Below, piece after piece: positions 27,935-48,400 of a DNA stretch of 64,000 nt. The notes beneath the pieces were generated by a model that made no database searches, was not told where the DNA came from, and saw only the letters and a program-made list of their open reading frames with translations. Positions within the stretch are counted from its first letter, which is position 1. Each line of letters opens with the position of its first letter. The DNA comes from Paecilomyces variotii (lineage: Eukaryota): NCBI GenBank assembly GCA_004022145.1, contig RCNU01000013.1. The stretch is one strand, 5' to 3'. The position numbers and the translations under genes were made by a program.

Positions 27935-28585
27935 AGGTCCATTTCTTCCACTAGACCTCGAGAACTGGATGACTCTCAGCGGCTTTACTCACATTGCCGA
28001 CAAAAAGATGCTGTCTCACGCCAAGCTACTGGTAGAATAGAGGTCAAGTGGATAGAACCGGATACTGATGCACAGATATCATTTCGAAAAGCTCCAGGCC
28101 ACAATAGATGTTTTTAGTAATTGCATATTCCAATTCAGAAACATTCATTCCCAGATAGATACCTACTACTTACTAGCCAATTTGATGTATCGCGAAAGGC
28201 CCGGCTGATTCAGGGACGTCTCAGTGGCATCTACGCAGATCATCTTCGTCTTGTGACAACGTTGACAGGGATTGCCTCCAGAGCATCTGTAGCCTCTTCG
28301 AAAACAAGCGTCGCATTTCGGGAAAGTTGACGGAGTGATAGACAGAAGCTCCGATACCCTTGACTTCTGTGTCCGCCGCTGCGGTTTCCCTTCCCAAACA
28401 CTAAACGCATATTGAGGACTTTCTGCTCGGGATCAGTCCGACAGTTTGATCTGCTTGCGAGAACGCGATGAGGGTGGGGGCTAGAGCGGAGGTTTCCTTC
28501 CTACTGAGTCATTACCATGTTGCGCCCTCATCGCGTTTTCTTTCTGGGATGCTTGTTGGAAGTACTGGGTTATGTATGTACTTAG

Positions 28586-29532
28586 TCAGATTCCCGTGTA
28601 GTCTGTCATGGAGTTATTTACTTCCGCCCAGAACTCATACTCATCTGAGGCGAGAATCGAAGATGAAAGCTCTCTCCATGATGGCTCATCAGTTGCCCAT
28701 TTCAATCCAAAGTGTTCCCTTGAAGCGACACTGTACCCCGATGCACCCCAGTCAATAATACCAGTTATCTTATCATCGTCGATGATGATGTTGGTGGGAT
28801 GCAAGTCACCATGGGTGAAAGTCTTCCTCTCATCTTGGCCATTTTCCCCAGAGGAAAGGATCCTATCCGCTAGGATACAATCTCTTTTACCAATCAGTCG
28901 ATCATTTGGTCTTGATCTCTGGAGAGCAAGAATAATGCCTGCATTGAACTCTTTCCTGGTTTGGAACGGGCCGTATCGATAGGGCTTGGTTCCCCAGGGA
29001 TGCTTGAATATGACATCTTCACAAGGGCCGCCATCCACAGACCCAAAGAAAGTACCTTCAATTCTGCGCCATTGCTGTACGTAATCTTTGAGCTGCTGCA
29101 CGATAGATTTTCGAGCAGCGATAGACAGACGATCCCAGCATTCTTCGAGAGGAATACCTGGCATCCTCTCCATTAAAATAAACCCAATATCTTCAATCAT
29201 ATAAGCATTCAAAACTTTCGGGACAAGGCACATCGCTTCCGCTTCTCCCATTGAAACCCCATACCCCATTTTCAAAATCATAGACCCGCTAATCTCCAGG
29301 ATTTTACGACCACTAACCCTGTGGGGGCACAGGTCTCTCCCATTCCGAATTTCTTCACAAGTAACGATAGGTCGGGCTTGGTCTCTCATTGAAGGGGCAA
29401 AACGAACGTCGATAGGCGAGGATAATATATGGCAGACATATTCTCGAACATTATATTTGGTGGGCTATGAGACGGTTAGGTTGTAATCATGCTTGTGCTG
29501 TGTATTGTACTTACCTTGTCAACTTCTGCCAT
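28586..29532 (-). CDS. Aminoglycoside phosphotransferase-like (APH/choline kinase family) protein
   Basis: Brenner motif FTHGDLHPTNIII and Mg-binding IIDWG; GEAEAM..VPKV..ILMERMPG. Probable short first exon MAEVDK (29532) with an intron to ~29465 restores the frame. Confidence 0.85.
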
Positions 29533-30314
29533 TATTGTTGCTTCTCGAGGAAATTTTCATGTTGTTGTTGTTGTTGTATTTATTAAAGGCTACAAGAGAT
29601 GGGTAAAGCCTAAAGGCAAAATAGGAGAGAAGGGTAAGGGCCTTACTTAAAGGCCACATGACTTAGTGTGTCAAGTCAAATTGGTAGTATCTTCTTTTTC
29701 TACGGTCAACAAAAGACAAGTTGTTAAGGCTTATTTTCCTTCGTGTTGACCCTCTTTTTGAATTTCGCAGCCTTTATTGTTTCGCATAGAATTAAGGCCG
29801 TACGTTTGATTATTACCCCAAGCATCTCCCGAGTTGTATGCCCGCCCTTGTTGCCGCCTTCGAAATCGATGAGAATGGAATGGAAGACATCGAGGCTGAG
29901 ACTTACCAAAGGGTATCTTCCTGTAGCTAGTTGCATGTGATTAAGATCGCTAAGTACTTAGTCTAGGTCTGTTCGAATGAACGAAGCTAATGCATGTGCA
30001 TTTCGGCCGGTCCATCTCTACTGCATTTCCTGCTTGAATATACCGTACCATTGGGGGCCAATTTCCCTCCGCTCTTTCAACAAGCGAGGGGGCCGAAACT
30101 TGCCATTTGCAGATGGCCTTGAGCCATCGGAGACGCATGCATAGGCGCTATAAACAGCAACCTTCAGCTGAGGCCAGGAACGGCGCGACCTATTAATCCA
30201 CGGAGAAGTTGTCTGCTGGATAACAGCAGCTACAATTGTTTTAAATATAACTGCGCAATCCCTGCTGTTGTGTCTCTTCATTAAAACTCCTTAGGCGATA
30301 TACCTAGTTCGAAG

Positions 30315-32135
30315 ATGCTTTCGCGAATTTTCCGGGTATGGAGGCCAATCCTCCTCCTCTTCCTTAACCTGGTTCTTGCGGTGCATTCCACATCGCCTAA
30401 TTCGACATGTCGCTGTTTTCCGGGCGACAGCTGTTGGCCAACCATTCAGCAATGGCAGCAATTCAATGAGACAATTGGAGGCAGACTGATTGCCACGATA
30501 CCCATCGCCAGCGCCTGCCATAACGATGGTTTTTCGCCGTACAATGAAACACAATGCGCCCAGTTACAATCTGTCTGGGGATTTCCAGAGACTCATTATG
30601 AAAGCTCCTCTTCGATCATGGCTCCGTTCTTCGCGAACCAGAGCTGTGATCCATTCCTTCCTAAAGAAGCACGCTGCATCATCGGGACCTATATCCAGTA
30701 TGCAGTGAATGCGAGTAGCGCATTGGATGTCCAAAAGACGATCGCCTTTGTCAAAGGGCACAACATTCGCCTTGTCATCCGCAATACAGGCCATGATTAT
30801 CTCGGGAAATCGACGGGAGCAGGTGCTGTCGGTATCTGGACTCATCATATGAAAGATATTGAATTCCTCGATTACCGGTCTCCATCATATACCGGGAAGG
30901 CAGTCAAAGTGGGAGCCGGCGTGCAGATATTTGAGGTAAACGAAGCTGCGCACGCCCAAAGCCTCGTGGTGGTGGGAGGCAATTGCCAAACTGTAGGCAT
31001 TGCCGGAGGCTACTCCCAAGGAGGAGGGCATGGTCAACTCGCCTCCAAGTTTGGTCTTGCAGCAGACCAGGTACTGGAATGGGAGGTTGTCACAGCAGAT
31101 GGAGATCTTGTGACAGCATCGCCATCAGAAAATGCGGACCTTTACTGGGCCCTGGCGGGTGGTGGAGGTGGAACATATGGGGTTGTCTTGTCTATGACTA
31201 GCAAAGCCTACCCAGAACTTCAGACGGCGACAGCAAACTTGACTTTTACTAATACCGGCGTCTCTCAAGAGACTTTTCTTGAGGCTGTGCAGACATTCGT
31301 TACTGGTCTCAATCCCATACTGGATGCTGGCGGGGTGAGCATCTGGTTGTTGACCAATTCATCGTTTTCCACGACACCCACCACTCTTCCAGGGGGGACA
31401 AAAGCTGAATTACAGAACCTTCTGAGCCCGTCCCTCAAAGCATTAGAGAAGAGCAATATCACCTACAGTAAGTCATGAATGAATCTCCTGAATAGAAGGA
31501 TAATCGCTGATTCTCGCAGCTTATTTCATTGATGAGTTCTCGACTTATTATGAAAGCTACCAAGTGATGAACCCAGTCGCGAATATCACTGAAGCACAGA
31601 TGGGAGGACGACTCATTCCACGTTCTCTGATAGATTCGAATGCTGAAGCGCTCACGACCGCCTTCCGGAGAATTCTCGCCTCTGAGACTGGTGTGGTCCT
31701 TTCGGGAATCTCAGTAAACGTTTCGCGACAAGACGCGCCAGACAACGCTGTAAATCCTTTCTGGCGTGAGTCTGTACTGGACCTTGTGATTGGGACGTAT
31801 GTTTTTTTCCCTCCTTAAAGATTCTCTGAACTTGACTGATTCCCATATGCAGACCCTGGAGTTACACTGACTGGGATCACGACCTTGCTGATCGGAATCT
31901 AATCACCAATGAACTTCTCCCTATCCTCGAAAGATTAACTCCCGGAGGGGGCGGTTACCTCAACGAGGCGGATTCTGACCAGCCACACTGGCAACGGGTC
32001 TTCTATGGGTCGAACTACAAGGCCCTCTCCGCAATAAAAGAGAAGTATGATCCAGATCACATCTTCTACGCAGTGACCGGAGTAGGTAGTGAAAGGTGGA
32101 TACAGAAGGCAGATGGGAGGTTATGTAAGTTGTAG
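30315..32135 (+). CDS. Secreted FAD-linked oxidoreductase (berberine bridge enzyme-like)
   Basis: Signal peptide, CRCFPGDSCWP, RNTGHDYLGKSTG (flavinylated His), GGNCQTVGIAGGYSQGGGHG, DLYWALAGGGGGTYGVV, C-terminal BBE domain GYLNEAD..FYGSNY..L..IKEKYDPDHIF; introns ~31468-31519 and ~31797-31852. Confidence 0.92.
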
Positions 32136-32348
32136 AAGGCAGATAATTTGAGTTGATCCTGCAAATCTATTCAAGGTAGTACATAAGATGACAATTCCGA
32201 ATTTATGTTAGCAGATTTGAGCTTCTTCCTCTAATTCCATCCCTGTCAATAATACCACAGACTGCGATAAGCGGATAACCATCTTCTCCCATAGACATGG
32301 ACAGAAGAATGAAGGTCTCACAGGTATCCATTAGTTCCCTAGGTTCTC

Positions 32349-33335
32349 CTATGCAACTCTAGCACATAATGGCATGACATATACAGTCGTAATCCAGAGG
32401 TTCCAAATAATAAATGTTCTCTTATCGCTTCTCACATTGCGGAAGAGGAGTGTTCGAGCGGCAACGGCCCACGCCAATGCACAGCTTACACTGGCAAATA
32501 TAACATGGACATTCCAGAATATCGGACAGAACAGGCCCCATGCTAGCATTGGGACAGCAATACTCCATCGTGCTGCTCTGTCGCCAATCACCAATGGTAC
32601 TGTGCGACGTCCCCGTTCTGCGTCGCCTTCCTGATCATAAATATCCTGCGTATGGACTGTCGATATGATGATTCCCGCGACAACGAGCAGCCACGGCAAA
32701 AGACGTTGGGAGGAATAGAAAGGAAGAGGACCTCCGCCTAAAGCAACCTCCAACGCTCCTGATATGAAGCATAGATACCCCAGAGCATTGATGAGGTTCC
32801 GAACTAGAGGATTTGAGTCGGCGCCACCCATGTTGTTGTACCAGGTGCCGAGGACGAGTAGGCCCAGCGACTGGCGAAGCCCTCCGCTGAATAACAGACT
32901 GTATGTCTGAGCTGCAGCATAGAAGACCAACATCGTGTACTTTGCTTGTCCCGACGTCATGCGTTTGCTCGGAAGTGGTCTCCAAGGTTTATTCACAGAA
33001 TCCTCAGCAATGGCAGAGATATCGCGCTGGTTATTTATCGTGAACGGGAGAAGATTGATCCAGACCCAAACAAGAACAGCGGGGGTCTGTTGTAAAAGAA
33101 TATAAAAAAGTTTGGATTTTAGCGTCGGCGGGAGTGATAACGAGGGAAGGCCATAGCTCGGAGCTGCCAACGAGTTTGCGATCCCAAAGATAGTACTCGG
33201 GATTAAGATGGTCTTGAGGTCACTGAAAGTGAAGAGCCAGATAGAATATGAATGGTATAGCGAGTGGGAGAACAGTCCGATCAGGCTCTGACTGACGCCT
33301 GCGATAAAATAATGTATACGGACCTTTTCTCTCAT
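32349..33335 (-). CDS. UbiA-superfamily membrane terpene cyclase / prenyltransferase (Fma-TC-like)
   Basis: Multi-TM 328-aa ORF with IWLFTFSDLKTILIP, NQRDISAIAEDSVNKPWRPLPS, WYNNMGG..RNLINALGY and second Asp-rich motif HTQDIYDQEGDAERGRRTVP, as in fungal UbiA-type sesquiterpene cyclases. Confidence 0.85.
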   Translation of the reverse strand: MREKVRIHYFIAGVSQSLIGLFSHSLYHSYSIWLFTFSDLKTILIPSTIFGIANSLAAPSYGLPSLSLPPTLKSKLFYILLQQTPAVLVWVWINLLPFTINNQRDISAIAEDSVNKPWRPLPSKRMTSGQAKYTMLVFYAAAQTYSLLFSGGLRQSLGLLVLGTWYNNMGGADSNPLVRNLINALGYLCFISGALEVALGGGPLPFYSSQRLLPWLLVVAGIIISTVHTQDIYDQEGDAERGRRTVPLVIGDRAARWSIAVPMLAWGLFCPIFWNVHVIFASVSCALAWAVAARTLLFRNVRSDKRTFIIWNLWITTVYVMPLCARVA

Positions 33336-34204
33336 GTTGCCGTCCAGAAGAGTCAGAATGCCGCGGCTCGTTCCTATTGATTTTCTGAGCTAAAGGTTGT
33401 TTTTCATTATTTTAACAGGGGGAGGTAGGTGGCCTATTAATGGGTTCTAAGTACACTGAGCCATTCATTTTCTTGTATGTTCTTGGGCCCCATGGCCTAG
33501 TAGGCAATCGCCTACCTCCTTCACTTTGGGGCCTAGCCCAGAGCACAGCTTATAGTTATAGCTAGATAGCTGCTGGAGCTGGAGCTCGCTCTCTCCTAGG
33601 GAATACAAGCCCTTGACCAGTCCTTTCCTCTCTAGCGGCCATGATATCTCAATCCAAAATGCGTCGCGCCGACATAATGGAGACGACCAGAATACCCGTG
33701 CACCATGCTAGCAACTTCCGTTTTATCTAATAATATATGCAATGGTACCAGATAGACTTAGTTCCAGATATTTTGGAATACCATAGCGCCAGTGCTCGTC
33801 TCAGCGCCTACTAAGTCCCTAGTTTGTAAAAGTCGACACCCAACATTAGCTGCCAATTGCCAATCCGCAGTCTACGCACTAATGTATGCATCATGCCGAT
33901 CGGTGTACATAGCCACTATTTTTCGATTTTCAGCTAACATGGTAACATGCCGGCGGATATTCTAAGAAAAAGGGCCCCCAATCTGCAGCATCGGTCTGCA
34001 GGGATAGGATCGACGAGTCAGGTTCCAATGTGAATGTATGAGCTATTGAGCCTAAGCCTAATATTTATGCTCTTGTTTTTTGGGGCCCTGATTGGACAGA
34101 GATTGTTGAATGTCTCAAAATTGCCGCGATATATCTAGAGATTCTACCAGCAGAGAGCTCCTCACCATCCATCTTAATGTTCCCATAGTTACTGTACGAA
34201 AAAA

Positions 34205-36170
34205 ATGTTGCGAAATAATGTACTTGCAGCCGCCCTAGGTGTGCTCGCACATCAAGTTGTTTTCATACACGGAGAATGGCATTTGAGAGCGCCGGCCGTC
34301 GTCATTGTCCATTTTCTTATTGGTATATTCATATATACAACCGAGATATCGAAAGACGAACAGAATGGGCTCTTGTCTGCCACTGTTCTCGTCTGTCTAT
34401 ATCTTGCCTCTCTCCTCTCAAGTATCTCGATTTATCGTCTATTTTTCCATCCTTTAAGGCACTTTCCAGGTCCACGACTAGTAGCATTGACCAAACTATG
34501 GCACGTCTGGAAGTGCCGTGATTCCCGCGGCCATCATGTCTTGGATGAATGGCATAAGAGCTACGGAACCTTCGTGCGTACAGGTGAGTATGGTATTTGT
34601 CGAGTGTTCAATAAAACTTCGATATTAAAAACTTAGCACAGGTCCTGCAGAAATCACAATTTTCCATCCAGTAGCCTACCAGGCGATGGATGGACCCGGA
34701 AACCAGAACACTCGGTCCGACTGGTATGATCTTCTCTATCCACGGATTTCATCTATCTTTACTCGGGACCGAAAACTGCACAGCTCGCGCCGCAAGTTGT
34801 GGGAGCGGGCATTAAGCAGGAAAGGTGAGTCGTGTTCAGCCCGACTAAGTAACTAAGTAGCCAAAACCACGCCTGTACTGACACAAAGAGTCAAGCTCTC
34901 ATGGAATACTATGAAAGAGTTCGGGAAAAGGTTCATACTCTAGAAAGTCTAGTTATGTCCCAGAACTCCCGACCAGTGGATATCAACAAGCTGATGTACT
35001 GGTTTGCCTTCGATTCCATGGGAGATTTTGCCTTTAGTGAAGATTTCGGTATGATGAAGAACAAGGCTTGGCACCAGAACATTGTCATGCTGCGTTCTGC
35101 TCTCGCATTATTGGGGCCCTTGAGCCCGGCAATTTGGATTCCACGGCTGGGGTTCGCATTCATTCCTGGTCTTTGGAGAGTACGAGACTGGTTCCAAATG
35201 TTGGCCTTCTGTGACAAGTGTATGGAACGACGGATGAAACGGAAGGTTGAGAGCAAAGATATCGCGTCGTGGTTTATCGAGGATCATTTAACCCGCGAAC
35301 ATGATAGTAATCGACATCGCTGGCTTAGTGGTGATACTGCCACTCTCGTCGTGGCTGGAAGGTCAGTATCTTCTCACAGATCACTTGAAGCAAAGCTAGC
35401 AGCTGATTTATCTATGATAGTGACACAACTGCCCCCAGTCTCTCTATATTGTTTTATTTCCTGGCACGCTATCCAGAGCATGTTGAGAAGATCAACTTGG
35501 AGATCATGTCCGTCGACCACGAAGATCCAAATGCCTTGGCGGCCTTGCCGCATCTCAACGGCACTATCAACGAGGCAATGCGCCTTCTGCCAGCGGTGCT
35601 TACATTCAGTTCTCGAGTAACGCCCCCTGAAGGTATCACCGTTGAAAACACCTTTATTCCTGGGAATACTAAAATCTGCGCCCCACGCTATACGATTGGA
35701 AGACGTGAGTGAAGCTTGCTTCGAACAAAGATTGTATGACTAATTGTCTGGAATAGTTGAGTGTGCTTATGAGCAACCGAATGATTTTATTCCTGAGCGA
35801 TGGTATAGTCGGCCAGAACTGATCAAGGACAGACGTGCATTTGCTCCCTTTGGAGTCGGTACGCATTCTCTTCATTCCCTTCTTCTTTTGTATGACCCCC
35901 TCGAAACAACTCTTAATAACAACAACACTAGGTCACACGAGCTGTGTCGGAAAACACCTCGCCATCGCACAGATCCGGCTTGTTGCTGCCAACCTGATCG
36001 CTCGGTATCGTATCGAGTTTGCTCCCGGTGAAGGTAGTGGAGAAGCAGTCGAAAGAGATATGAAGGATCAGCTTACCGCTCGGCCTGGACGATTCCATCT
36101 CATTTTTGTGCCACGAAGGATGGATACTTTGCCTGTTGGAAATGAAGAAAGTAAAGGTCTTGTTCAATAG
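34205..36170 (+). CDS. Cytochrome P450 monooxygenase
   Basis: N-terminal TM, HPLRHFPGP, I-helix VVAGSDTT, ExxR (NEAMRL), FIPERW and heme motif FGVGHTSCVGKHLA, assembled across 5 GT-AG introns with consistent phases. Confidence 0.95.
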
Positions 36171-36262
36171 CTATTTCCGGGAATAGGAATTTTGATAAAA
36201 TATGATTGTTTCTTGGTTCTTGCATTATAATGACAGAGTTTGAGTATAGAAGATCTCCTTGT

Positions 36263-37162
36263 TTACGGATTTGGAAGGAATCCCCACGAGACATGAATGT
36301 CAAACCTCACGTAGCAACCCGACTGGATATCTGCCTCTGCTTGACGCTCCAGTTCGTCCAGCCGTTCTGAGCTCAAGGCGCCGGGAGCGCCCTTCGAGGC
36401 CATGAGTCGTGCCCACGAGAATATCGCAGTCATTCCGTTTGCTGTCAGGGCTTTACGCGTTTCCGGGAGTCGATCCGAGCTGACAATGTCCTCCTGCACC
36501 TGCTCCAATCCAGCGGCCTTCATATCCTGCGGCAGAGTAGACCAGCCGTGTGAGAACCGAGTCTGCAGGCCATCCCGGAACAAACGTCCCATGAAGCGTG
36601 CCGCTGCGACTGTCGATTCCGGCTGGCCACGATAGTGTTGGACTCCAATGAAATTGCACTCCTCCCACTGCATCGCACCCCCAGGCTTCAAAAGCTGTGC
36701 CAAGTTCTGTACTACGCTGCTCCATTCATCTGGCTGCAGACCAGCTGCTATCAAGCGAACATGCACTAAGTCATAAGTGCCACGTAATGCCGGAGGCACG
36801 GGCTGCCGAGCATCCAGGGTAGATAGGTTGACGTTAGGTGGGCGGCTAGAGGGAGGATAGAATAGGGCTGGCGAAAGATCATATCCATCTAGCGTGGCGG
36901 ATGAATAAACGGGCGCTAACATGTGGAGGAAGATCCCCGTGCCAGTGCCCACATCGGCGATCCGAGGATTTGGGGGCAGCCGCTGGGCGATTTCAGGATG
37001 CACAAGGTAACTCAGGTTTCTGTGCTCGTTGCTAATCAGTAACGATGAAGAAATTTGGCCTGCCTCCGACGGAACTCACTTGGTGAGCAGATCAAACTGC
37101 TGATCGAGTCTAGAAGCTTCAGCTTGGTGACGACTCATGACTTCCACGTACGAGTCGGACAT
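36263..37162 (-). CDS. Class I SAM-dependent methyltransferase (LaeA-like family)
   Basis: EASRLDQQF, SAM motif IADVGTGTGIF, YDLVHVRL, LLKPGGAMQWEE; one intron ~37022-37079. Confidence 0.9.
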
Positions 37163-37819
37163 GGTGGATAACTCAGGGACCAGTCAACGAATAGATGCGG
37201 ATGGTATAGTTGATGGATAAGAACTTAGACTCCCGTGAAGGTGCAACAGTTCCTAAATATGCCCCGTCACTCGCAGAATAGAATGCCTACTAACCGCCAG
37301 GGTTTCCTGGTATACATCTGCTCCGGGTCATGGCGGCGGTATGTTCGCAATGGAAACTCGAAAAGGTAAGGGGTGTTAAGCTCTCAAGTTGCGCTATCGG
37401 CTTCTGCACATCAGATAAACAGAGAATAGTTCCTGATCCGGGGTTCTTAATGCAGATTGCCGCAGGGTGCATATGGCCCCCAAACTAAAGACATCATCTC
37501 TTCTTTCCGACCAACACTCAAGCATCAATTGCTAGTGCAACCGTAGTGTATGCATGCTGCATACACTGCTGTTGACATGGATATGAGACGTAATGTCATG
37601 TATTCCCGGATGTTACGTGGGGGCCGTTATGCACAGTTGATGTTGTACATAGTGTACAGACTGCATACTCAGGCCCCCAACACTCTGCGCTTTCCCAGTC
37701 GATCACCTTGATTATCATTTCACGGACAGATATATCTCTGATAATATGGTGTCGACTTTCTGGAATCATGTTCATTCGAAACGGGGAGCAAGGTTCTGTC
37801 TAGGAAGAAGAGAGCAACC

Positions 37820-39132
37820 ATGGCGTACATGGGCTCGCGTGGACCAGCACTGATTGTTGCCAGCCTGGTGCTGCTCGTCCTGGCCGCAACCGCTGTCATT
37901 CTTCGCATCATTTCTAGTCACATTCGCAAAAAGCCCTTCAAAGTCCATGACTATCTCGTTTTTCTATCACTGGTAGGTTTCCCAGGACGATTCCGGTCTC
38001 CAAATCGTTACTGACGCCTTGACGGTTGTAGTTCTGCTTGACAGGATATGTAATTGACGTTATCGTCGGTATGACTCTCCATCATGTTTTCTGGTAGTAG
38101 GCTTTGTTGACCATCCACAGGAGCTGTTGAGGGCGGGTATGGCGACCATGTCTCGGATATGCCGCTTGACAAGTTGACAGTTGCCCTCAAAGTAAGTCAT
38201 CATCTCGTGTATCACATTAGCCGGCTTACTTGCTGACATTTCAGATATTCTTTGTGTCAGAATGGCTCTGGGCGATCGCGGTGGCTACCTTCCGTTTGGC
38301 CATTATTGCGCTCTACGTTGAAATCTTCCAAATAACTACCTTCTACTGGGTCGCGATGGGGACCGGCACTGTAGTTTTCCTCTATTGGGTAGCCACCGTT
38401 TTTACCATCGCGCTTCTGTGCCGGCCTATTTCCTATAACTGGGACCGAACGATCCATGGTGTTTGTGGAGAGGTCGTCTTAACTGAATATGCATCAGCTG
38501 GGTTTAACATGGGAATCGACTTGTGGGTCGTCTCCTTGCCATTGCCCATGGTATGGCGCCTGCACATGGCAAACCGCAAGAAGTTGGGCGTCACGGGCAC
38601 CTTCGCGCTAGGAATTATGTACGTATTCTTTGCTGTCCTACTCGCACGATGGACCGTCTGGATTAATCCCAAGCGATACAGAACGGCGGGCATCAACCTT
38701 GGCCGGGCGATTCAGACCAAGGTCTGCCCTTCTGACGATCTCACGTATTGTGCGCGGGACAGCTCGATTCTTGTCATCGCCGAGATGACCGCGGGGATCC
38801 TTGTTGCTTGTGTTCCGACCTTTGGGTCAGTACTATTCCGACGCAAAAATGACAAGAGTTTACCGCGATACGACGACGCACCCCCAACCATTGGATCAAA
38901 ACGCCGCCGCGACCGACCTATTCCACCGGGCGAGTTCTCGTTTGACGACGATTTTGCGATCAAATCACCTGGGATGCAAGGCCCAAACAAGATAGGCCCA
39001 GGCGCGCACATTGAGCCGGGTAAGCCGGGAGGCGGGCGAGGTCCCTGTGAAATAGTCGTGACAAGGGACTTGGATGTCTCGAGCATAGACCTACAGCCGC
39101 TGACAATGGAAATCCCAAGAAGTTCAGTATAG
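37820..39132 (+). CDS. Pth11-like / fungal rhodopsin-domain integral membrane protein (no CFEM domain)
   Basis: Multiple TM helices, VILRIISS..HDYLVFLSL, GGYGDH, LLCRPISYNWD..GVC, FNMGIDLWVVSLPLPMVWRLHM..KK, AEMTAGILVACVP; 4 introns. Confidence 0.88.
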
Positions 39133-39969
39133 CGTGTAAAAATGGGAATGATTCTTTTTCTTTTTTTCTGTCTTTCTTTTTTTCACCCCTGCTCTTGTGT
39201 TGTATATACTATACTGTGCTGGTTCCAACAATCAGAGACAGATCCTGTCCCAGTCTGTAGCAATATGCGAATCTGATAGCAGTAGGCGCCGCCCATAATC
39301 GAGTCCACATCCTGGCTAGTTGGTCTTTGAGTCGTCTATATAGAGTATGGCCCATGCGTTGGATCAATTGTGTACTCGTCGAGACGAACTGACTGAGACT
39401 TCAGCGAGTGTGGGGGCCAATGACTCACATAGAGCAACCTGACGCTGTGATGTGTTTCTGTGGGTTTGATGACAGGAACTGTTTCTCCTCCATAATTCAG
39501 CCCCAAACTGTGTCTGCATGCGGAGTGAGATTTTGAATTTGAATCCCTGCTTAGTTTCTTGCCAGGTGGGCCAAGTGTCAGGACATCAGATCAGAACCCC
39601 TCACAAGCCTCGAGTGCTTCTGATAGTCACAGGAGCCACATGCATGGGGTGAAGTTCTTTGTCTGTATCCAGGCCATGCCCTTCTGCCTCGACAGATAGA
39701 CCTCCCGGTGCAAATCATTGACTATTGACCATTAATAACCATCGCACAAACCAGACGAACTCTAGTCTGCCCCTCCAAGGCTCGGTCCTTTGTTCTGAAC
39801 TAGTTCAAGGTCAGCGTTGCAGGAAGCAGGAAGGCGCAGGGACTGGGTGAATGAAACTCATATATTGAGCTCCCCTCCCCGCGCCAGTGTCTTTCTCCCT
39901 TGTCAGTGGCACACCTACATTCAGACCAGTCAAATCGAGTTGGTTGTCGACCGGTTGCTTGACATTATC

Positions 39970-40886
39970 ATGGACAGTTCTCTTGCGAATCTGGCTGTGG
40001 TCGTCTGCCATGGATCGTACCACACGCCTGCCCCCTATGAGGCCTTCCTCCAGGCAATAAGGGCCCGCGGCATCGAGGCCTACTGTCCGCAGCGTCCATC
40101 CAGCGACCTCAGCAAGCTCAATGTTGGCGATGTCAATAATCCCGATTTCGACCGGGGGCCTCCCGAGGGAGGCTATCCCACCGAAGCCGACGATGCAGAG
40201 GTTATCGTCGAACTTCTGAAAAAGTTGATCGACGAGGAGGGCAAATGGGTATTGCTAGTTGGCCACTCGTCTGGCGGCTGGGTGGCTACTGAGGCGGCCA
40301 AGCCAGAATTACAAGCAACCACTCGCAAAGCTGAAGGAAAACAAGGCGGCGTGGTTGGGATTTTCTATATGGGCGCGTTTATCATCCCCGTTGGAGAATC
40401 GGTGCATAGCTTCTTCCAACCCAAGGATCGCCCCGTCGTCGCTCCGCCATTCATGAGATTCCATGTGAGTCTCTGTTCCAGTGTCGTTCCTTTTTGATCA
40501 ATGCTAATGGTTCTGTGCGCTTATTGCAGAAGCACGGTCTTGATGGCCTGGGCACAGTCACAGATGCGCGCCAGTATTTTTTCAATGACCTTGACGAAGA
40601 GTCTGCAAAGAAATGGGCTGCAACCTTGACGGCGGGGGCTGTGATGCCTGTGCGCCTCACAAACAACGCCTATGCAACTGTTCCCTGCGCATACCTCGTT
40701 CTTGAGAAAGACCAGACTCTTTCCCCAGAATATCAGGAGGGCATGGTGGCCCTGCAGAACCAGAAAGGCACACCCCCCTTTACCATGTATTATGCACCAT
40801 CTGGTCACGCACCGTATCTCAGCTGGACGGAGGGACTCGTCGGTAAACTGGAAGAGTTTGCAAGAAAGGTTCTGCCATCCCAGTAG
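39970..40886 (+). CDS. Alpha/beta hydrolase (AB hydrolase_6-like)
   Basis: Oxyanion motif VVCHGSYHTP, nucleophile elbow VGHSSGG, candidate Asp (EKDQTL) and His (SGHAPYLS); one intron ~40465-40530. Confidence 0.9.
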
Positions 40887-41426
40887 AAATGCTTGAGTGT
40901 ATTTGTTAGCTGCATGTTCTCTGCAGAAATAAGACAGAATCTTAATCGGTCCGATATACACATCCACGACATCAAAGTAGCTAGAGAGGATTGACTCGGC
41001 TAGGATAGCAACATCGCTCCTTTGAGCGGCCAGGAGTAGATCGATCCCAGAGAAGCAGTAACCATAAGTTCGCTTTTTGTGCGCAAGCCACCCCTCGAGG
41101 CGAAAGAGAAACTGTCGCTACACCATTTCTTAGAGTTATATCTAGATCACTTCACTTTACACATCACCAGCAAGGACGACATAACAATGAAAACACTCTC
41201 TCTACACAACATCAAGCGGGGAAGTCTGAGATAAGAAAGGAAGCCCCACAGTATTAGAAATACAGACTGCGATAACCACGTGTAACTATGGCCTAAATTC
41301 AAAGCACATACATACATATACTGTATGTTTGAACGATATATAATTCTGAGGCTTCTCCCTCTTCTCAGCTAACTCACTCTGCCTGGTTTCCGGCTCTCTG
41401 CTTTTTCCAGCATCTCCGCTTCCGCC

Positions 41427-42485
41427 ATGCCCAACTTCGGGAAAATCAACGGCCCCGCCATCTTTGTGGCGCAATACCTCTCAGATGAAGCACCATTCAA
41501 TAGCCTAGACGGAATTGCTCAATGGGCAGCAAGTCTCGGATTCAAAGGAATACAGATCCCCGTCGACGACAGGTTGATTGATATCGAGAAAGCCGCAAAC
41601 GACCAGGCATACTGCAACGATTTGTTAGCCACACTCAAACACCACAACATCCAGTTGACAGAGCTATCCACACATCTTCAAGGGCAGCTGATCGCTGTTC
41701 ATCCGGCTTATGATATCCTATTCGATGGTTTTGCACCACAGGATGTCCGCGGAAACCCCCCGCGACGGGAAGAGTGGGCTCGAAAGATTCTCTTTTCAGC
41801 AGCCAAGGCTTCCAAAAACCTCGGATTGACAGCTCATGCCACATTCAGCGGATCACTCTTATGGCCATATATGTATCCCTGGCCACAGCGGCCGGAGGCA
41901 TTGGTTGAGAAAGGGTTCAGCGAACTTGCGGCTCGCTGGAAGCCGATCCTTGATGCGTTCGATGAAGCGGGCGTTGATCTCTGCTATGAAATCCACCCGG
42001 GAGAGGACCTCCATGATGGAGTCTCTTTCGAGCGATTCCTCGCAGCAGTTGGTGGGCATCGACGAGCCTGTATCCTTTACGACCCTAGCCATTTCGTACT
42101 GCAGCAGCTCGATTACCTTGGCTTTCTCGATTTGTATCACGACCGCATCAAAATCTTCCATGTCAAGGACGCAGAGTTTCTGCCAGACGCACGCCAAGGT
42201 GTCTATGGTGGATTCAGTTCCTGGACAGAACGAGCCGGTCGGTTCAGGGCTCTCGGAGATGGCCAGGTAGATTTCAGAGGCATTTTCACAAGACTGATAA
42301 AGAACAGCTATAGCGGATGGGCCGTTTTGGAGTCTGAATGTGCATTTAAGAACAAGATGACCTGCGCTGAAGAGGGGGCTAAGTTTATAGCAAGCCACAT
42401 ATTCCCTGTTGCGGAATCGAGCTTCGATGACTTTGCTGGATCGGAAATCAGTGATGACCAGGTTTCCAAGATATTGGGGATTTGA
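41427..42485 (+). CDS. Xylose isomerase-like TIM-barrel sugar phosphate isomerase/epimerase (bacterial-type)
   Basis: Intronless 352 aa; GPAIFVAQY..APFNSL, STHLQGQLIAVHPAYD, YPWPQRP, YEIHPGEDLHDG, YDPSHF, FHVKDAEF, GRFRALGDGQVDF metal-binding TIM-barrel motifs. Confidence 0.88.
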   Translation: MPNFGKINGPAIFVAQYLSDEAPFNSLDGIAQWAASLGFKGIQIPVDDRLIDIEKAANDQAYCNDLLATLKHHNIQLTELSTHLQGQLIAVHPAYDILFDGFAPQDVRGNPPRREEWARKILFSAAKASKNLGLTAHATFSGSLLWPYMYPWPQRPEALVEKGFSELAARWKPILDAFDEAGVDLCYEIHPGEDLHDGVSFERFLAAVGGHRRACILYDPSHFVLQQLDYLGFLDLYHDRIKIFHVKDAEFLPDARQGVYGGFSSWTERAGRFRALGDGQVDFRGIFTRLIKNSYSGWAVLESECAFKNKMTCAEEGAKFIASHIFPVAESSFDDFAGSEISDDQVSKILGI

Positions 42486-42751: not shown

Positions 42752-44938
42752 ATGTCCGCGTCGATCGTGAAGCGACCCGTGAGAATATGTGTTCGTCGAT
42801 GAACTCCCCTCTGTATTTCATTGCCACGACATTCTGACCATATTACGCTAGGGAGTAAGCGGCTCTGTGCTGGACCGGCGTCATGGATTCAAAATGGCAG
42901 CAGAAGCTGAAGAGCAAATTGATGTCATCATTGGTGACTGGATGTCTGAGGGGAATATGGTCTCTGCTGCTTTTCGCAAGTTGGGCCGAACAGGTAAGTA
43001 AATAGACCTACTGCAACTCCACAACTCGAGAAACGATGTTAACTGGTCCCCACAGACGACGGGCAGGGAGATCCTGGATATGAAAAGTCATTCCTACCAT
43101 CTATTGCGAGCTCCCTACCGACAATCGCCCGAAAGGGAATCAAGGTAGTTGTGAACGCTGGCGCTAGTGATCCAGAGGCTCTCTCCGTCGCAGTATCTGA
43201 GGTCGTTCAGAAACAAGGCCTGAGTCTCAACACAGCCTGGGTCACTGGGGACGAAGTTATCGACCAGATTCGCGATGGCCTGAGACGCGGAGAGCCGGTG
43301 CTCTACAGTCTCGAGACACATGAACCTCTCCGGTCCCTACCAGAGGACATCGTCTACGCCCAGGCTTACTTGGGAGCTGCTGGGATCTCCGAGGGGCTTC
43401 GTCAAGGTGCCGATATTGTCATTTGTGGCCGTGTCGCAGACGCCAGTCTTGTAGTAGGAGCGGCAAACTGGTGGCATGGATGGACGCGCGATCAGCATCA
43501 GCAACTCGCTTCTAGCCTTGTGGCCGGCCATCTGATCGAATGTTCCACTTACGTGACGGGGGGGAACTTCTCAGGCTTCAAGTCTGTTCCAGGTCTAGGA
43601 AACCTAGGCTTCCCCATCGCGGAAATCAGCCATGATGGAGATATCATCATCACTAAATTGGCAAAAACAGGGGGACACGTAACTACAGATACCGTCACGG
43701 CACAGCTTCTCTACGAGATCCAAGGCCCTCTGTATGAATACTTGCCCTAACAGAAGAAACATTCCCAATCCAATTTCTAACCTATGGAAAAAGCTACTTC
43801 AACTCAGACGTCACAGCCCGACTTGACAATATATCCCTAACACAACTCGGCCTCGATCAAGTCCGCGTCCAGGGAATTGGTGCCCTACCACCTCCACCAA
43901 CGACAAAGGTCGGCCTTACCGGGAAACGACGATACAAAGCCGAAATCCACTGGTCATTAGTTGGCCTAGACATTGCTGAAAAGGGAGAGCTGCTCAAAGC
44001 CAATATCTTGACCAGTCTAGGACAAGAAGCCATATCGCGTATCTCTCTGCTCAAGTTCGATACCTATGGCGTGTGTCCCGAAAACCCAGACTCACAGAAT
44101 GCGGCTACAGTCGATTTTAGAGTATTTGCACAAGCTGCGTCGAGAGAAGCTCTATCGCCAGAGTTCTTCTTGCAGCCAATACTGAATGTGATCATGTGCT
44201 CGTGAGTCCCGGCCCTTACTTACTTAGTCTATAGCATTCGAAGTCAATACTGATGAACTACATTCTAGATATCCCGGAGCAACAATGCAACCGGTATGAA
44301 CACACACACACACACACACCTCTCTAAACTAAACTAAACCCTTTCACTCATTCATCCCACAGACAATGCTAACATCTATCTCATTATCAAAGTCCCTCGC
44401 ATCCGCACTCCCCCAACCATACAGTGAATACCACGTTACACTCATCCCACAGAACAAACTAAACCACACAGTCCACATCAACGGACAACCACACCCTATC
44501 CCACCCCCTCCTCTCACACAAACCTACCCACCAGAACAAAAAAGCCACGACCCCCTCAACCCCCCCGACATAAGCAGCTTCGGCGAGACAATCCCAGGTC
44601 CAATCGGATGGATCGTCCACGCCCGCTCCGGCGATAAAGGCTCCAACGCCAACGTCGGCTTCTGGGCCCGAGACGACGAAGAATATACCTGGCTTTGTAG
44701 TTTTCTAACGGTTCGCCGGATCCAGGAGCTATTGGGAGCGGAGTATAAACCAGGGAGTCGAATTGAACGGGTTGAGTTTCCTGGCCTGCGCGGTGTTCAT
44801 TTCGTGTTAAATGGACATTTGGATCGTGGTGTGAATAGTACGAGTACATATGATATTTTGGGGAAGAATGTGGCTGAGTATTTGCGTGCGAGATATGTGC
44901 CGCTGCCGAAGAAGTTTTTGGTTAAAGGGAAGATTTGA
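42752..44938 (+). CDS. DUF1446 / acyclic terpene utilization AtuA-family protein
   Basis: RPVRICGVSGSVLDRRH, IGDWMSE, VVVNAG, AQAYLG, GADIVICGRVADAS, AGHLIECSTYVTGGNF, TVTAQLLYEIQGP, ARSGDKGSNANVGFW, DILGKNVAEYLR; about 5 introns. Confidence 0.9.
44300..44319. repeat. (AC)10 microsatellite inside a DUF1446 intron
   Basis: Read directly just after the GTATGA donor. Confidence 0.9.
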
Positions 44939-45422: not shown

Positions 45423-48400
45423 CTAAGAATCATCAACAAGCCTCTTCTGATCCCAGGCCTTCTTTGCACCGTCCAGAAGGACATCCATGTTACCACTGTT
45501 TTCACACATGCCACGGAAGCTACCTCCTTCCTTGCTGATCAACGTCCACGGGTGATCGAACTCGACGACCTCACCATGGTCCAACACGAGTACTTTATCA
45601 TAATCAATGATCGTCTGTAGACGATGAGCGATGGTAATGATAGTGCTGTCCTTTAGTTCTCGAAGAGTTTCTTGAATCTTGGCATCGGTGGCATAATCGA
45701 TGGACGCTGTTGCTTCGTCCATCATCAAAATCCGCGGGTTCTTCAGAAGAGCTCGGGCCATGCAAAGCAGCTGACGCTGGCCTTGAGAGAGGTTAGAACC
45801 AGACTCTGACACCGGGGTCTCCAGGTTGCGGAATATGTTCTTATTGTCTTGAAACACAGCAGCAGTACCGTCACTTCCGTTGGGTGTAGGAGAGGCGGTC
45901 TCGGCCTCGGACAAATTGCTGGTCGTCGGTGTTGCTGACCCTGATGTATCAGAGCCGAGCAGGTGCACCCGGCGTAACGCCGTGAGAATCTGCTCGTCCG
46001 TGAACAGACCGAAGGGATCAAGATTGCTACGGATGGTTCCCGTGAAAAGAGTGGGATCTTGAGGGACAATGGTGATTGCCTCGCGCAGATCCTGCAGGCC
46101 GATCTTCCCAATATCCACATCATCGATGATAATTTGCCCTTTCTCGGCTTCAAGACCGCGGAAAAGAGCAAGAGCAAGAGAACTCTTACCAGCGCCAGTG
46201 CGACCAACGATCCCCACCTTTTCGCCTGCCTGGACCGTGAAAGTGACGTTTTTGAGCACCGGGTCAAGGTCTGGTCTGTACCGCGTAGTGTAGTCAATGA
46301 ACTGCAGAGAACCCCTAGTCGGCCAGCCAGGTGGTGGACGGGAGTCAGGAATGACCGCGTCTGCCTCTTGGTCCACCTCGAGGTATTCCTTAACACGTTC
46401 AACCGAGTTCATGTTCTGCTGAGCTTCTGCATAAAGTCGGACGAGCCAAAGTATATTCTCCGTGAAGGTAACGGCGTATGTCAGTGACAGACCAGCCGCT
46501 CCTGCGTCAATCTTGCCGACACTCAGGATCACAAATGTCGCTGAGAAGAAAGAGACCAGGGCACCTGTCATGTCAACGCGGTATGCGAGCCAACGGTTGC
46601 AAGCCCATAGATACAGGTGAGGACGATTGTATGAATTTATACGGCGATGGTTGTCCAGAATGAAACGTTGTTCATCCCCGTATGCACGAATAGTGACAAT
46701 TCCATGCAGAGTCTCGCCAAACTGTTGGTACAGAGGGCTCCGTTGCACCGATTCAAGTCTCTTCAAATCCCGGGAGGAGTTTAAGTAGACCGCTCCAAGC
46801 GCTGCATATACCATAGTGATAAAGATGCCTGCTATCAGAAACCCCGGCGTGATGACGGAAATGAGGATCACAATCATGATCACTGAGGCCATGCAGTGAA
46901 GCATGCCGATTGCGACAGGGGCGACCTCCTGATCCACGGCCTCCACGTCCTTTGAAAATCGATTCATCAGTTGGCCCAAGGGTGTAGAATCGAAGAATCG
47001 GAACTTAGCGTGAAGAACAGCCTTGAGGAGACGCCCATGTATCTTCCACGATGCATGCAACGAACCCCAGAACAGGACGGCCTCCCTAGTCATGGAGATG
47101 ATCACGTATGCGATACCCAGAAGTGCATAGACCCCAAGGTAGTACGAGACGTTAACATTGCCATCAGTTGAGCCGTTAGAATTCATATTGAGCTGGTGTG
47201 CACCCCATGACGTTGTTCGTGGCACACTCCCAGAGATGAAAGACGGGAACTTGAAGTTCGCAACGGCGGCATATGTGCCAGCAGCATCCGGCTCGGCCTT
47301 CTCATTGTGGTACGCGTTCGCCCACTGTCTGATCCAGATATTGGTGGACACAGAGCCGAGCTGCTGGGCACAGAAGACGGCGACAGCGATAATCCAGAAA
47401 TACCAGGGGCCCATGGAGTCAAGATACATCTTAATTGTTGACATCTTGACACTGCCAACAGCCTTCGACTCCGTCAAAGCAGACTTTCCTGCCTTCGATG
47501 CTGAGCCATTTGCTGTACCATCTGCATCACCATTCGGTTCGTGTTCACCATTGGCATGCTCTAACTGCTCCTCAAGATTGGACGGGACCCGCGATGACAG
47601 ATGAGAGCCGCCTCTTGAAGTTGGCCTTGACTTGAGAAGGTCTTCTCCGAGAGCTCCGGAGGCTGCCACTTCATCCGGTGGACCCTGCACCGAGATTCTG
47701 CCGTTATCAAGAACAACAACATGATCAGCTTGGGGGGCAGTCAAGGCAACATTGTGCGTAACGAGCACGCAAGTCCGGTTGAACATCAGTGGCCCCATTA
47801 TTGCCTCCTGGAATATGTGTTTAGCGGTGTGAGAGTCGACAGCACTCAGACAATCGTCTAGAAGAAGGTGCCTGGCTCTACTATACATGGCACGAGCTAA
47901 TGATATCCTCTGCTTCTGTCCGCCAGAGAGACTGATTCCCTTCTCACCGACGAGCGTCTGGTCTCCAGCATCTAGAATAGAAAGATCACGTTCGAGGGCA
48001 CATGCTTTGATCACAGAATTGTAGCGTCGCTTGTCGAAAGGTGACGCGAAAACAATGTTCTCTTTAATAGTGTCATTGACCAACCACGGTTCCTGAGCAC
48101 AATACGCAACACTCTCTGTGAGCAATGTCTCGGGGTCTAACGGGATCTCTGCGCGACTGCGACCACCACCTGGCAGATAGACCTTTCCTTCGATGAGATT
48201 CATCTCTCCCAACAGAGCCATCAGTAGTGATGTCTTCCCTGATCCAGTTGGGCCCGCAATCACGTTGAGCTTTCCAATTTGGAAAGAAACATCCAGGTTG
48301 ATCAAACGGAAAGAGTCTGCGATGTTCTCACCCGAGCGGTCATGGGAGTCTTTCTTCGGAGCGGCCCAGGTTAGCGTGGCTCGTTCCAAGGCGATCTTAG

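Follow-up and report, generated by a model that had tools for sequence, protein, structure and literature searches.

Terpene cyclases of the UbiA type are known to produce fungal sesquiterpenoids, but few of them have been characterised, and the studies cited here name a product for only a handful. Their signature consists of two motifs, motif I of the form N...(G/A)...D and motif II QDxxDxxxD, as opposed to NDxxDxxxD/DxxxD of prenyltransferases (PMC9835599, PMC11745945). In the HEx study, 326 clusters with UbiA-type cyclases were found with antiSMASH2, and clusters combining such a cyclase with a P450, such as TC1 and TC3, gave oxidised sesquiterpenoids in yeast (PMC5895447). Hence, the assumption made in a sequence-only reading of the locus described here, that clusters built on UbiA-type enzymes can be missed by core-gene-based predictors, is contradicted. 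In the tps1 cluster of Antrodia cinnamomea, the cyclase Tps1A, the P450 Tps1H and the methyltransferase Tps1D together yield an acid along with the corresponding methyl ester (PMC9835599). Here we report a locus of Paecilomyces variotii in which a UbiA-type enzyme is accompanied by five further genes. Literature searches turned up no characterised cluster of this composition, in agreement with the initial impression that the combination had not been described.

The window, i.e. the whole stretch of 64 kb of DNA that was analysed, contains the six genes contiguously. The first encodes a BBE-like FAD-linked oxidase of 570 aa (30315..32135, + strand; exons 30315-31467, 31520-31796 and 31853-32135), from which both introns were removed in the RNA runs X1, X3 and X7. 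The gene of the UbiA-type membrane terpene cyclase candidate (32349..33335, - strand; 328 aa) consists of a single exon and is spanned by an RNA contig of 1213 nt (32195-33407, X3). It is divergent from the gene of a cytochrome P450 of 550 aa (34205..36170, + strand; exons 34205-34583, 34642-34824, 34896-35361, 35421-35704, 35757-35858 and 35932-36170), as previously read, with 869 bp between them; five GT..AG introns of the P450 gene were obtained from X1, four of them also from X3. The SAM-dependent methyltransferase (36263..37162, - strand; exons 37162-37080 and 37019-36263; 279 aa) has one intron, 37020-37079, spliced in X1 and X3. For the Pth11-like 7-helix membrane protein of the Fung_rhodopsin family (37820..39132, + strand; exons 37820-37972, 38032-38068, 38121-38191, 38245-38618 and 38682-39132; 361 aa), three introns were defined by joints in X1/X3 and the fourth by loose ends in X1 together with GT..AG borders. 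The last gene encodes an alpha/beta hydrolase of the Abhydrolase_6 family (39970..40886, + strand; exons 39970-40464 and 40530-40886; 283 aa from the ATG at 39970); its intron 40465-40529 follows from a loose end in X1 and GT..AG borders, and X3 has a poly(A) loose end at 40954-40956.

Spliced RNA contigs thus define 13 GT..AG introns in the cluster, and none of the six spliced coding sequences contains an internal stop. Pfam matches, the motif check and the open spliced frames confirm the six intact genes with the positions, domains and motifs initially assigned to them. Transcripts of all six genes were present in an RNA run from a pure culture and in the metatranscriptome of a food fermentation, with the five intron-bearing genes spliced; transcription and splicing of the cluster were seen in runs X1 and X3. 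These RNA data are contigs, which show presence and splicing rather than level or co-expression. Because the genes are transcribed, there is no sign of a silent cluster, and the label 'cryptic', if taken as silent, is not supported.

A Pfam scan covered 15 ORFs within the region 28.4-43 kb and 133 stop-to-stop ORFs outside it, of which 132 had at least 90 aa and one had 88 aa. None of these ORFs, all about 90 aa long or longer, matched a domain of a PKS, an NRPS or a class I terpene synthase, as the sequence-only reading had claimed for the window; because of this size range a small exon could escape the scan, a PKS or NRPS could not. A transcription factor or transporter conserved with the cluster was not found. 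Two described cluster types were considered and set aside: a polyketide-derived meroterpenoid cluster, as NDxxDxxxD is absent and no PKS was found, and a cluster of the fumagillin/ovalicin type, as the scan of the window found no domain of a PKS, acyltransferase, dioxygenase or MetAP2 resistance gene.

The Pfam p450 domain was matched on three exons of the P450, whose spliced frame is open. The methyltransferase matched Methyltransf_12/25/23, and its model has the same length as the database protein P0156, from which it differs in one residue. The Pth11-like protein matched Fung_rhodopsin (PF20684) with E 4.1e-33 and a score of 115.3 bits (cut-off 27); its model has the length of database protein P0274 and differs in three residues. 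Its structure model shows seven long helices, with a tail that is disordered from residue 269 onwards, and its PDB matches were GPCRs, but weak (E 3e-3, TM up to 0.57). Both families are narrow, with 117 matches for the methyltransferase and 27 for the Pth11-like protein. The hydrolase matched Abhydrolase_6 (1.2e-12 and 7.3e-05) and shows the features of a serine hydrolase, a GxSxG elbow (GHSSG at residue 99, in a numbering that starts one residue before the ATG) and a C-terminal histidine (SGH near the C-terminus). Its orthologue in the related locus L004 is 59% and 51% identical over two exons, with GHSAG and SGH kept.

The FAD oxidase is the weakest member of the cluster. It matched FAD_binding_4 (E 1.8e-21) and BBE (1.3e-12), and its N-terminus resembles a signal peptide. 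The best solved relative is MtVAO615 of Myceliophthora thermophila (PDB 6f72), a VAO-type flavoprotein (E 5.5e-101, residues 24-383). To our knowledge, MtVAO615 is not known from any terpenoid pathway and its substrate is not established. The oxidase gene is transcribed and spliced, with an open frame, but orthologues (59-63% identity) were found near UbiA in only two of 19 distinct related loci, and these two groups represent one lineage because they are sister groups in the UbiA tree.

For the analysis of co-conservation, 80 related metagenome loci were assigned to 30 distinct UbiA groups, and the 19 groups of at least 10 kb were counted. The P450 homologue adjoined UbiA in 16 of the 19 (with at least 35% identity in 13 of those 16), followed by the Pth11-like protein (11), the methyltransferase (6), the hydrolase (4) and the FAD oxidase (2), whereas seven flanking control genes of the window occurred in 0/19; three groups were without any of the partners. 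The gene set thus shows an ancient co-conservation with UbiA across distant fungi. In the closest group (UbiA 55-56% identical), identities were 44% for the P450, 55% for the methyltransferase, 44% for the Pth11-like protein and 60% for the hydrolase, and partner identities followed UbiA identity across classes. A Pfam scan of seven related loci found the same families. In L004, the block of methyltransferase (-), Pth11-like (+) and hydrolase (+) genes has kept its order and orientation, although on the other side of UbiA. Locus tags of UbiA and methyltransferase differ by one or two genes in P. variotii, Penicillium odoratum, P. verhagenii, cf. Caloplaca and Usnochroma, and in P. alfredii the UbiA and Pth11-like genes are three locus tags apart. 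Among the 120 best UbiA homologues, the longest contig had the same size as that of a methyltransferase match in 22 cases, 14 of them below 120 kb.

The 8-mer TGGGGGCC is the sole 8-mer common to the four promoter regions of the cluster, where 0.005 would be expected. All of its six occurrences in the 64 kb window fall into these regions, which make up 5% of the window; 1.7 occurrences would be expected in the whole window, and 0/100 shuffles reached six. One element precedes the oxidase ATG by 263 bp (30052..30059, +), one lies in the bidirectional UbiA/P450 promoter 33336-34204 (33973..33980, -), three in the bidirectional methyltransferase/Pth11 promoter 37163-37819 (37475..37679, at 37475 on the -, 37618 on the + and 37672 on the - strand) and one upstream of the hydrolase gene (39411..39418, +). 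The element is absent near UbiA in the relatives' loci and hence supports co-regulation in P. variotii only.

The patchiness of all partners except the P450, by far the most constant one (16/19 against 11, 6, 4 and 2), could also mean that the neighbours are held together by descent and that only the UbiA/P450 pair cooperates, the other four genes being unrelated in function. The resemblance of the oxidase to MtVAO615 would fit, and fungi of this kind have many Pth11-like genes. Nevertheless, we regard this as unlikely, given that partner identities track UbiA identity across classes, that the three-gene block is preserved in L004 even on UbiA's other side, that the narrow methyltransferase and Pth11-like families are UbiA-linked in the genomes named above, and that TGGGGGCC marks all four promoter regions but no other part of the window, with the seven flanking controls at 0/19.

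The UbiA protein, which has 98% identity to one protein of P. variotii, matched Pfam UbiA (PF01040) with 72.6 bits against a curated cut-off of 34.2 (E 4.1e-20). The motifs NQ..ED..NKPWRP and QDxxDxxGD reported earlier were recovered by the motif check. Motif I reads N102-Q103...E111-D112..N115-KPWR, with S107 in the G/A position and a distance from N to D (N102Q-x7-E111D112) equal to that of Pb_BisA (N95...D105). Motif II reads Q230-D-I-Y-D-Q-E-G-D238. Alignment A1 shows no variation at the residues of both motifs, including D231, D234 and D238. The canonical NDxxDxxxD was not found in the window's UbiA protein, in any of the 80 related loci or in any of the 120 best homologues, which had motif I in 118/120 and motif II in 116/120. 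According to its AlphaFold model (pLDDT 90), the protein has the predicted all-helical intramembrane UbiA fold. All ten PDB matches at E <= 0.001 were chains of the UbiA superfamily (6m31/7bpu and chains of 4tq3-4tq6), and 4od5 and UBIAD1 (8djk) followed at weaker E-values, with TM-scores up to 0.67. In the UbiA tree, the protein falls into a clade of 21 rows with 100/96 support, comprising Eurotiales, Sordariomycetes, Dothideomycetes and lichen-forming Lecanoromycetes; its branching order is broadly that of the taxonomy, and the members of the tree are all uncharacterised proteins. A relative with 53% identity, P0019, was named after the A. fumigatus cyclase af520 (Fma-TC) by its annotators, while P0059 from A. 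fumigatus itself (51%) and its cluster bear no fumagillin-synthase name. A grouping with proven cyclases is suggested by the motifs and by one annotator's name for P0019. As to the earlier assignment as a terpene cyclase, the cyclase-type motifs and the absence of NDxxDxxxD speak for it; the cyclisation of FPP is predicted.

A cyclase of the same family might use another chain length, e.g. GGPP for a diterpenoid, as does the cyathane synthase EriG, a diterpene cyclase of the UbiA type that shares these motifs (PMC9835599). Substrate length is not readable from sequence. However, a prenyl diphosphate synthase domain was found neither in the window (ORFs of about 90 aa or more) nor in the scanned related loci, and fungal diterpene clusters are usually accompanied by dedicated GGPP synthases. 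Moreover, the characterised ascomycete members named in PMC5895447, PMC11745945 and PMC9835599 make sesquiterpenes, and we consider a diterpenoid product improbable. That the enzyme is a prenyltransferase, acting on an acceptor made elsewhere in the genome so that the cluster tailors a meroterpenoid, would agree with its membership in PF01040, its UbiA prenyltransferase fold, a cyclase activity that is only predicted and the frequency of UbiA-type prenyltransferases in fungal meroterpenoid clusters with methyltransferases and membrane proteins (PMC4205913), but with NDxxDxxxD lacking here, in 120/120 best homologues and in 80/80 loci, cyclase-type motifs in its place and no PKS or other acceptor source in the window or in seven Pfam-scanned related loci, it is very improbable.

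We favour the reading, with a probability of about 0.65, that the six genes constitute one P. variotii biosynthetic gene cluster for an oxidised sesquiterpenoid. None of the metabolites of P. variotii is known to be linked to this cluster. The following route, from the substrate and the activity of the cyclase to each reaction and the sequence of the reactions, is inferred. The UbiA-fold membrane enzyme would ionise farnesyl diphosphate (FPP) at its Mg-binding motifs and then cyclise it. By analogy with all characterised UbiA-type sesquiterpene cyclases, the reaction would most likely pass through the bisabolyl cation and end in a hydrocarbon of the bisabolene or bergamotene type. The divergent P450 would oxidise the hydrocarbon, possibly from a methyl group to a carboxylic acid, and the methyltransferase would methylate an oxygen function, as in the cyclase/P450/methyltransferase triad encoded by tps1 of Antrodia. 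Later intermediates may be the substrates of the serine hydrolase and the FAD oxidase, and the Pth11-like 7-helix membrane protein may be a conserved accessory.

A far more speculative reading, to which we give very little credence, is an ancient, self-contained sesquiterpenoid signalling module instead of a toxin or antibiotic pathway. A putative sesquiterpenoid methyl ester resembling juvabione or juvenile hormone would arise through the UbiA cyclase, the P450 and the methyltransferase, the hydrolase would inactivate it by de-esterification and the Pth11-like protein would be its putative receptor. The linkage of the genes would predate the divergence of Eurotiomycetes, Sordariomycetes, Dothideomycetes and Lecanoromycetes. 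It is allowed by the co-conservation of the gene set across four classes, the methyltransferase beside an esterase-type hydrolase, the GPCR-like topology of the membrane protein in its model and the juvabione-like methyl ester produced by the Antrodia triad (PMC9835599).

The locus of the favoured sesquiterpenoid cluster is well defined, intact and transcribed, and it belongs to a food-spoilage mould that is amenable to genetics; its boundaries are set independently by co-conservation and by the promoter element. As the gene set is found again in fungi from lichens to Penicillium, the elucidation of a single cluster would annotate the whole family; it would also provide the first function for a Pth11-like membrane protein travelling with a biosynthetic pathway.

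Compared with known systems, the locus resembles the fumagillin cluster of A. fumigatus in its membrane-bound UbiA-fold cyclase, there Fma-TC (af520), beside a P450, there a multifunctional one. The fumagillin cluster also has a methyltransferase and an enzyme of the alpha/beta-hydrolase fold. With HEx TC1 (Trichoderma virens) and TC3 (Botrytis cinerea) it shares an ascomycete UbiA-type cyclase and a nearby P450 (PMC5895447). Pb_BisA of Penicillium brasilianum is likewise a UbiA-type protein of the Eurotiales, with motif I N95QRHPGSVAED105 and motif II QDMYDQPGD at equal spacing; its function was assigned by phylogeny and qPCR, not by assay, and the P450 Pb_BisB was proposed as its partner, as is the P450 here, but the words methyltransferase and hydrolase occur 0 times in the available text on the Pb_bis cluster (PMC11745945). 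The tps1 cluster differs in that it is from a basidiomycete, its cyclases are placed in a separate subclade, and a Pth11-like protein and a hydrolase are not mentioned in the available text. Yet, by the kind of enzymes and the motif pair, it has the same cyclase/P450/methyltransferase triad, and its conversion of a methyl group to an acid and on to a methyl ester may serve as the mechanistic template for the P. variotii cluster (PMC9835599).

All six genes that the sequence-only reading had placed at 30315-40886 were present there, namely an FAD oxidase (+), a UbiA-type enzyme (-), a P450 (+), a methyltransferase (-), a Pth11-like membrane protein (+) and a hydrolase (+), and a Pfam scan confirmed every family claimed for them (FAD_binding_4 with BBE, UbiA, p450, Methyltransf_12/25/23, Fung_rhodopsin and Abhydrolase_6). 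RNA contigs from a pure-culture run (X1) and from a food-fermentation metatranscriptome (X3) skipped 11 short stretches within these genes, all with GT..AG ends, and two more introns were marked by loose contig ends, giving a total of 13. With these introns removed, all six coding sequences are open, in agreement with their description as intact. The models encode a 570 aa oxidase, a 328 aa UbiA protein from an intronless gene, a 550 aa P450, a methyltransferase of 279 aa (equal in length to the database protein P0156, with 1 residue different), a Pth11-like protein of 361 aa (equal in length to P0274, with 3 residues different) and, from the ATG at 39970, a hydrolase of 283 aa. The X1 pieces listed had zero differences from the window and the X3 contigs were 97-98% identical to it; one X3 contig of 1213 nt spans the UbiA gene at 32195-33407. 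Transcripts of all six cluster genes are thus present in no fewer than two independent samples; the contigs report presence and splicing only and carry no information on expression level.

Run X2 was rejected as evidence of transcription. It is labelled RNA, but its 7.5 kb contig at 34890-42351, covering five genes at ~98% identity, is unspliced with all introns retained, which is most simply explained by DNA carry-over into the library. Stretches uncovered in X2 and in a further run, X7, were left out of account. At 29465-29965 a long X1 contig aligns on either side and not across, with ~397 contig letters against 501 window bases and a skipped repeat reported at 29550-29587; this gap could stem from a difference between strains, from a repeat or from the assembly.

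The window comes from P. variotii: its UbiA protein shares 98% identity with a protein of this species, and of the 14 sequences in the corresponding 90%-identity cluster, the 11 that are named all belong to P. variotii assemblies. Both motifs attributed to the UbiA protein beforehand were found (N102-Q...E111-D112..N-K-P-W-R and Q230-D-I-Y-D-Q-E-G-D238), and the prenyltransferase motif NDxxDxxxD is absent from its sequence. According to passages in the papers on Antrodia cinnamomea tps1 (PMC9835599) and on Pb_BisA (PMC11745945), the same motif pair separates UbiA-type terpene cyclases, among them Fma-TC, EriG, Tps1A/2A and Pb_BisA, from UbiA prenyltransferases, and Tps1A activity was lost on mutagenesis of the aspartates (PMC9835599). 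Among the best 120 homologues, motif I occurs in 118, motif II in 116 and the canonical motif in none. An AlphaFold model (25 sequences; pLDDT 90) gave ten PDB matches at E <= 0.001, all from the UbiA superfamily (archaeal DGGGP synthase, AfUbiA), with ApUbiA and UBIAD1 following at weaker E-values; no solved structure of a UbiA-type terpene cyclase was among these matches. The family comprises 337 representatives of 50%-identity clusters (E <= 1e-30), Atlas names of its members are generic UbiA only, and no fumagillin-synthase name occurs within the sequence cluster of the A. fumigatus relative P0059 (51% identity). The protein is most likely a UbiA-type terpene cyclase, its membership being judged from motifs and not from a functionally anchored tree.

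Co-conservation had been named among the checks on the proposed cluster, and the partners do recur beside UbiA. A UbiA-alignment scan of metagenome contigs yielded 80 loci flanked by at most 10 kb per side, forming 30 groups at 95% UbiA identity, 19 of which contained at least 10 kb of DNA. In tblastn searches (E <= 1e-5) with the six spliced proteins of the window and, as controls, seven queries from its flanks, the P450 was matched in 16 of the 19 groups, the Pth11-like protein in 11, the methyltransferase in six, the hydrolase in four and the FAD oxidase in two; each of the seven controls scored 0/19, and in 3/19 groups none of the five UbiA partners was matched. The closest group consists of nine loci with 55-56% UbiA identity and partner identities of 44% (P450), 55% (methyltransferase), 44% (Pth11-like) and 60% (hydrolase). 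There, P450 and UbiA are divergent as in the window, and the methyltransferase(-)/Pth11(+)/hydrolase(+) block keeps its internal arrangement on the other side of UbiA.

The same Pfam families were found in seven representative related loci, some of which carry additional genes for SDRs and an AMP-binding enzyme. A gene of ~400 aa without a Pfam family lies a few kb from UbiA in three distinct related groups (L004:11459-12647, L021:6171-7379 and L035:5803-7005); its copies are 65-72% identical among themselves and have no counterpart in the window. In one close relative (UbiA 51-53%), the UbiA gene is followed by an SDR and by an ORF of 821 aa that contains an AMP-binding domain (L008:5108-9166); acylation or some other extension of the terpenoid may take place in that lineage.

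Named assemblies gave a similar picture. Locus tags of UbiA and methyltransferase are 1-2 apart in P. variotii, Penicillium odoratum, P. verhagenii, cf. Caloplaca and Usnochroma; three tags separate UbiA from the Pth11-like gene in P. alfredii, and the methyltransferase adjoins the Pth11-like gene in P. fimorum. For 22 of the 120 best UbiA matches, the longest contig is exactly equal in size to that of a methyltransferase match, 14 of these pairs being on contigs <120 kb. Both of these families are narrow: 117 matches were obtained for the methyltransferase and 27 for the Pth11-like protein. One P. variotii Pth11-like protein (P0275, tag DTO271G3_6233) is only 71% identical to that of the window, other strains being near-identical; it may come from a diverged allele, from a paralogue or from a gene model that differs.

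A maximum-likelihood tree was calculated from 49 UbiA proteins (30 locus representatives, 18 named matches and that of the window), with a matched UbiA stretch of at least 250 aa as the entry rule, by which no locus group was dropped. The window's protein falls in a 21-row clade (support 100/96) of Eurotiales, Sordariomycetes, a dothideomycete and lichen-forming fungi, with branching roughly by taxonomy. Taken together with the co-conservation, this branching speaks for an old cluster that would have been inherited mostly vertically.

We searched on either strand for k-mers common to the cluster's four promoter regions, of which one lies upstream of the oxidase gene, one between UbiA and the P450, one between the methyltransferase and Pth11-like genes and one upstream of the hydrolase gene; together they account for 5% of the window. 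A single 8-mer, TGGGGGCC, was common to them, against 0.005 expected (200 shuffles). It has six sites in the 64 kb, all six inside the four regions; 1.7 were expected, and six were reached in 0/100 dinucleotide-preserving shuffles. In the boundaries that it marks, the element agrees with co-conservation, and it suggests a common regulator. Since it is absent near UbiA in 15 related loci, where only four scattered sites in three loci were found, it is evidence in this species only. The four regions contain no CGG-N-CCG (Zn2Cys6-type) sites.

Outside the cluster region, 133 stop-to-stop ORFs (132 of at least 90 aa and one of 88 aa) were scanned against Pfam. As the sequence-only reading had stated, no PKS, NRPS or class I terpene synthase was found among the window ORFs, nor was a prenyl diphosphate synthase domain (ORFs of at least 90 aa and the one of 88 aa). 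The left flank begins with the housekeeping genes PRP38, SPT8 and that of a ZNFX1-type helicase. Next come, left of the oxidase gene and with RNA contig cover, a short Zn2Cys6 ORF (28166-28432, -) and the ORF of an APH-type phosphotransferase (28589-29464, -), neither of which is conserved with the cluster in the 19 related locus groups. The genes directly to the right encode a xylose-isomerase-like TIM barrel (41373-42485), an AtuA-family protein ('acyclic terpene utilisation'; gene at 43043-44935, with splicing seen in X1, X3 and X7) and, in an ORF of 1650 aa, an ABCC transporter (45426-50375, -); these three are without TGGGGGCC and have no counterpart in the 19 groups. A ubiquitin-conjugating enzyme, an MFS fragment, a 5-oxoprolinase and a subtilase are also found on this side. 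Far outside the cluster, a two-exon gene at 15834-16973 resembles HODM_asu, the haem-dependent oxidative N-demethylase alpha subunit (Pfam E 9.5e-58 and 4.5e-38).

Among the accessory proteins, the oxidase has MtVAO615 (6f72) as its closest match (E 5.5e-101) and a single, signal-peptide-like hydrophobic stretch at residues 5-24. The hydrolase appears to be an active enzyme of the serine esterase type, with GHSSG and a C-terminal SGH, both retained in the orthologue of locus L004; its N-terminal HG..H motif presumably resembles that of plant methylesterases. Searched against PDB sequences, exon 1 of the hydrolase gave no match and the methyltransferase gave weak generic matches only (CyaF, juvenile hormone acid methyltransferase, E ~1e-3), which were set aside. 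The Pth11-like model has seven long helices and a tail that is disordered from residue 269 onwards (mean pLDDT 68.7), with weak GPCR matches and no enzyme in the structure search; a predicted complex with UbiA scored 0.00 in a run without controls and carries no weight either way.

For the pathway we infer every step. Most likely, the UbiA enzyme would cyclise FPP; the characterised UbiA-type sesquiterpene cyclases named in passages of PMC11745945, PMC12434612 and PMC9835599 all give bisabolyl-cation products (bergamotene, bisabolol, bisabolene). The hydrocarbon would then be oxidised by the P450 and the oxygen function methylated by the methyltransferase, on the model of Tps1H and Tps1D, which after Tps1A are described as producing first an acid and next the corresponding methyl ester (PMC9835599). 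Hydrolase and oxidase would act in later steps.

For the gene combination, which the first reading had not recognised as described, searches of open-access main texts found no characterised match, and none in P. variotii; the Penicillium rubens tag prefix Pc22g226 gave no paper. A CRISPR system is reported for P. variotii (PMC8017634). As counterparts, the lpg cluster (PMC13213483; AsR6-type cyclase) and the sydonol pathway (a class I cyclase, according to parts of PMC12434612) were set aside, and surveys of Hypoxylaceae and P. nodorum offered nothing specific. As a class, UbiA-type cyclase clusters are already known. The claim that predictors miss them was too strong, because the HEx study found 326 with antiSMASH2 and expressed 13 (PMC5895447). 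The analysis adds three things to the first reading: the apparent age and the breadth of the cluster family, the Pth11-like protein as its constant companion, and the promoter element.
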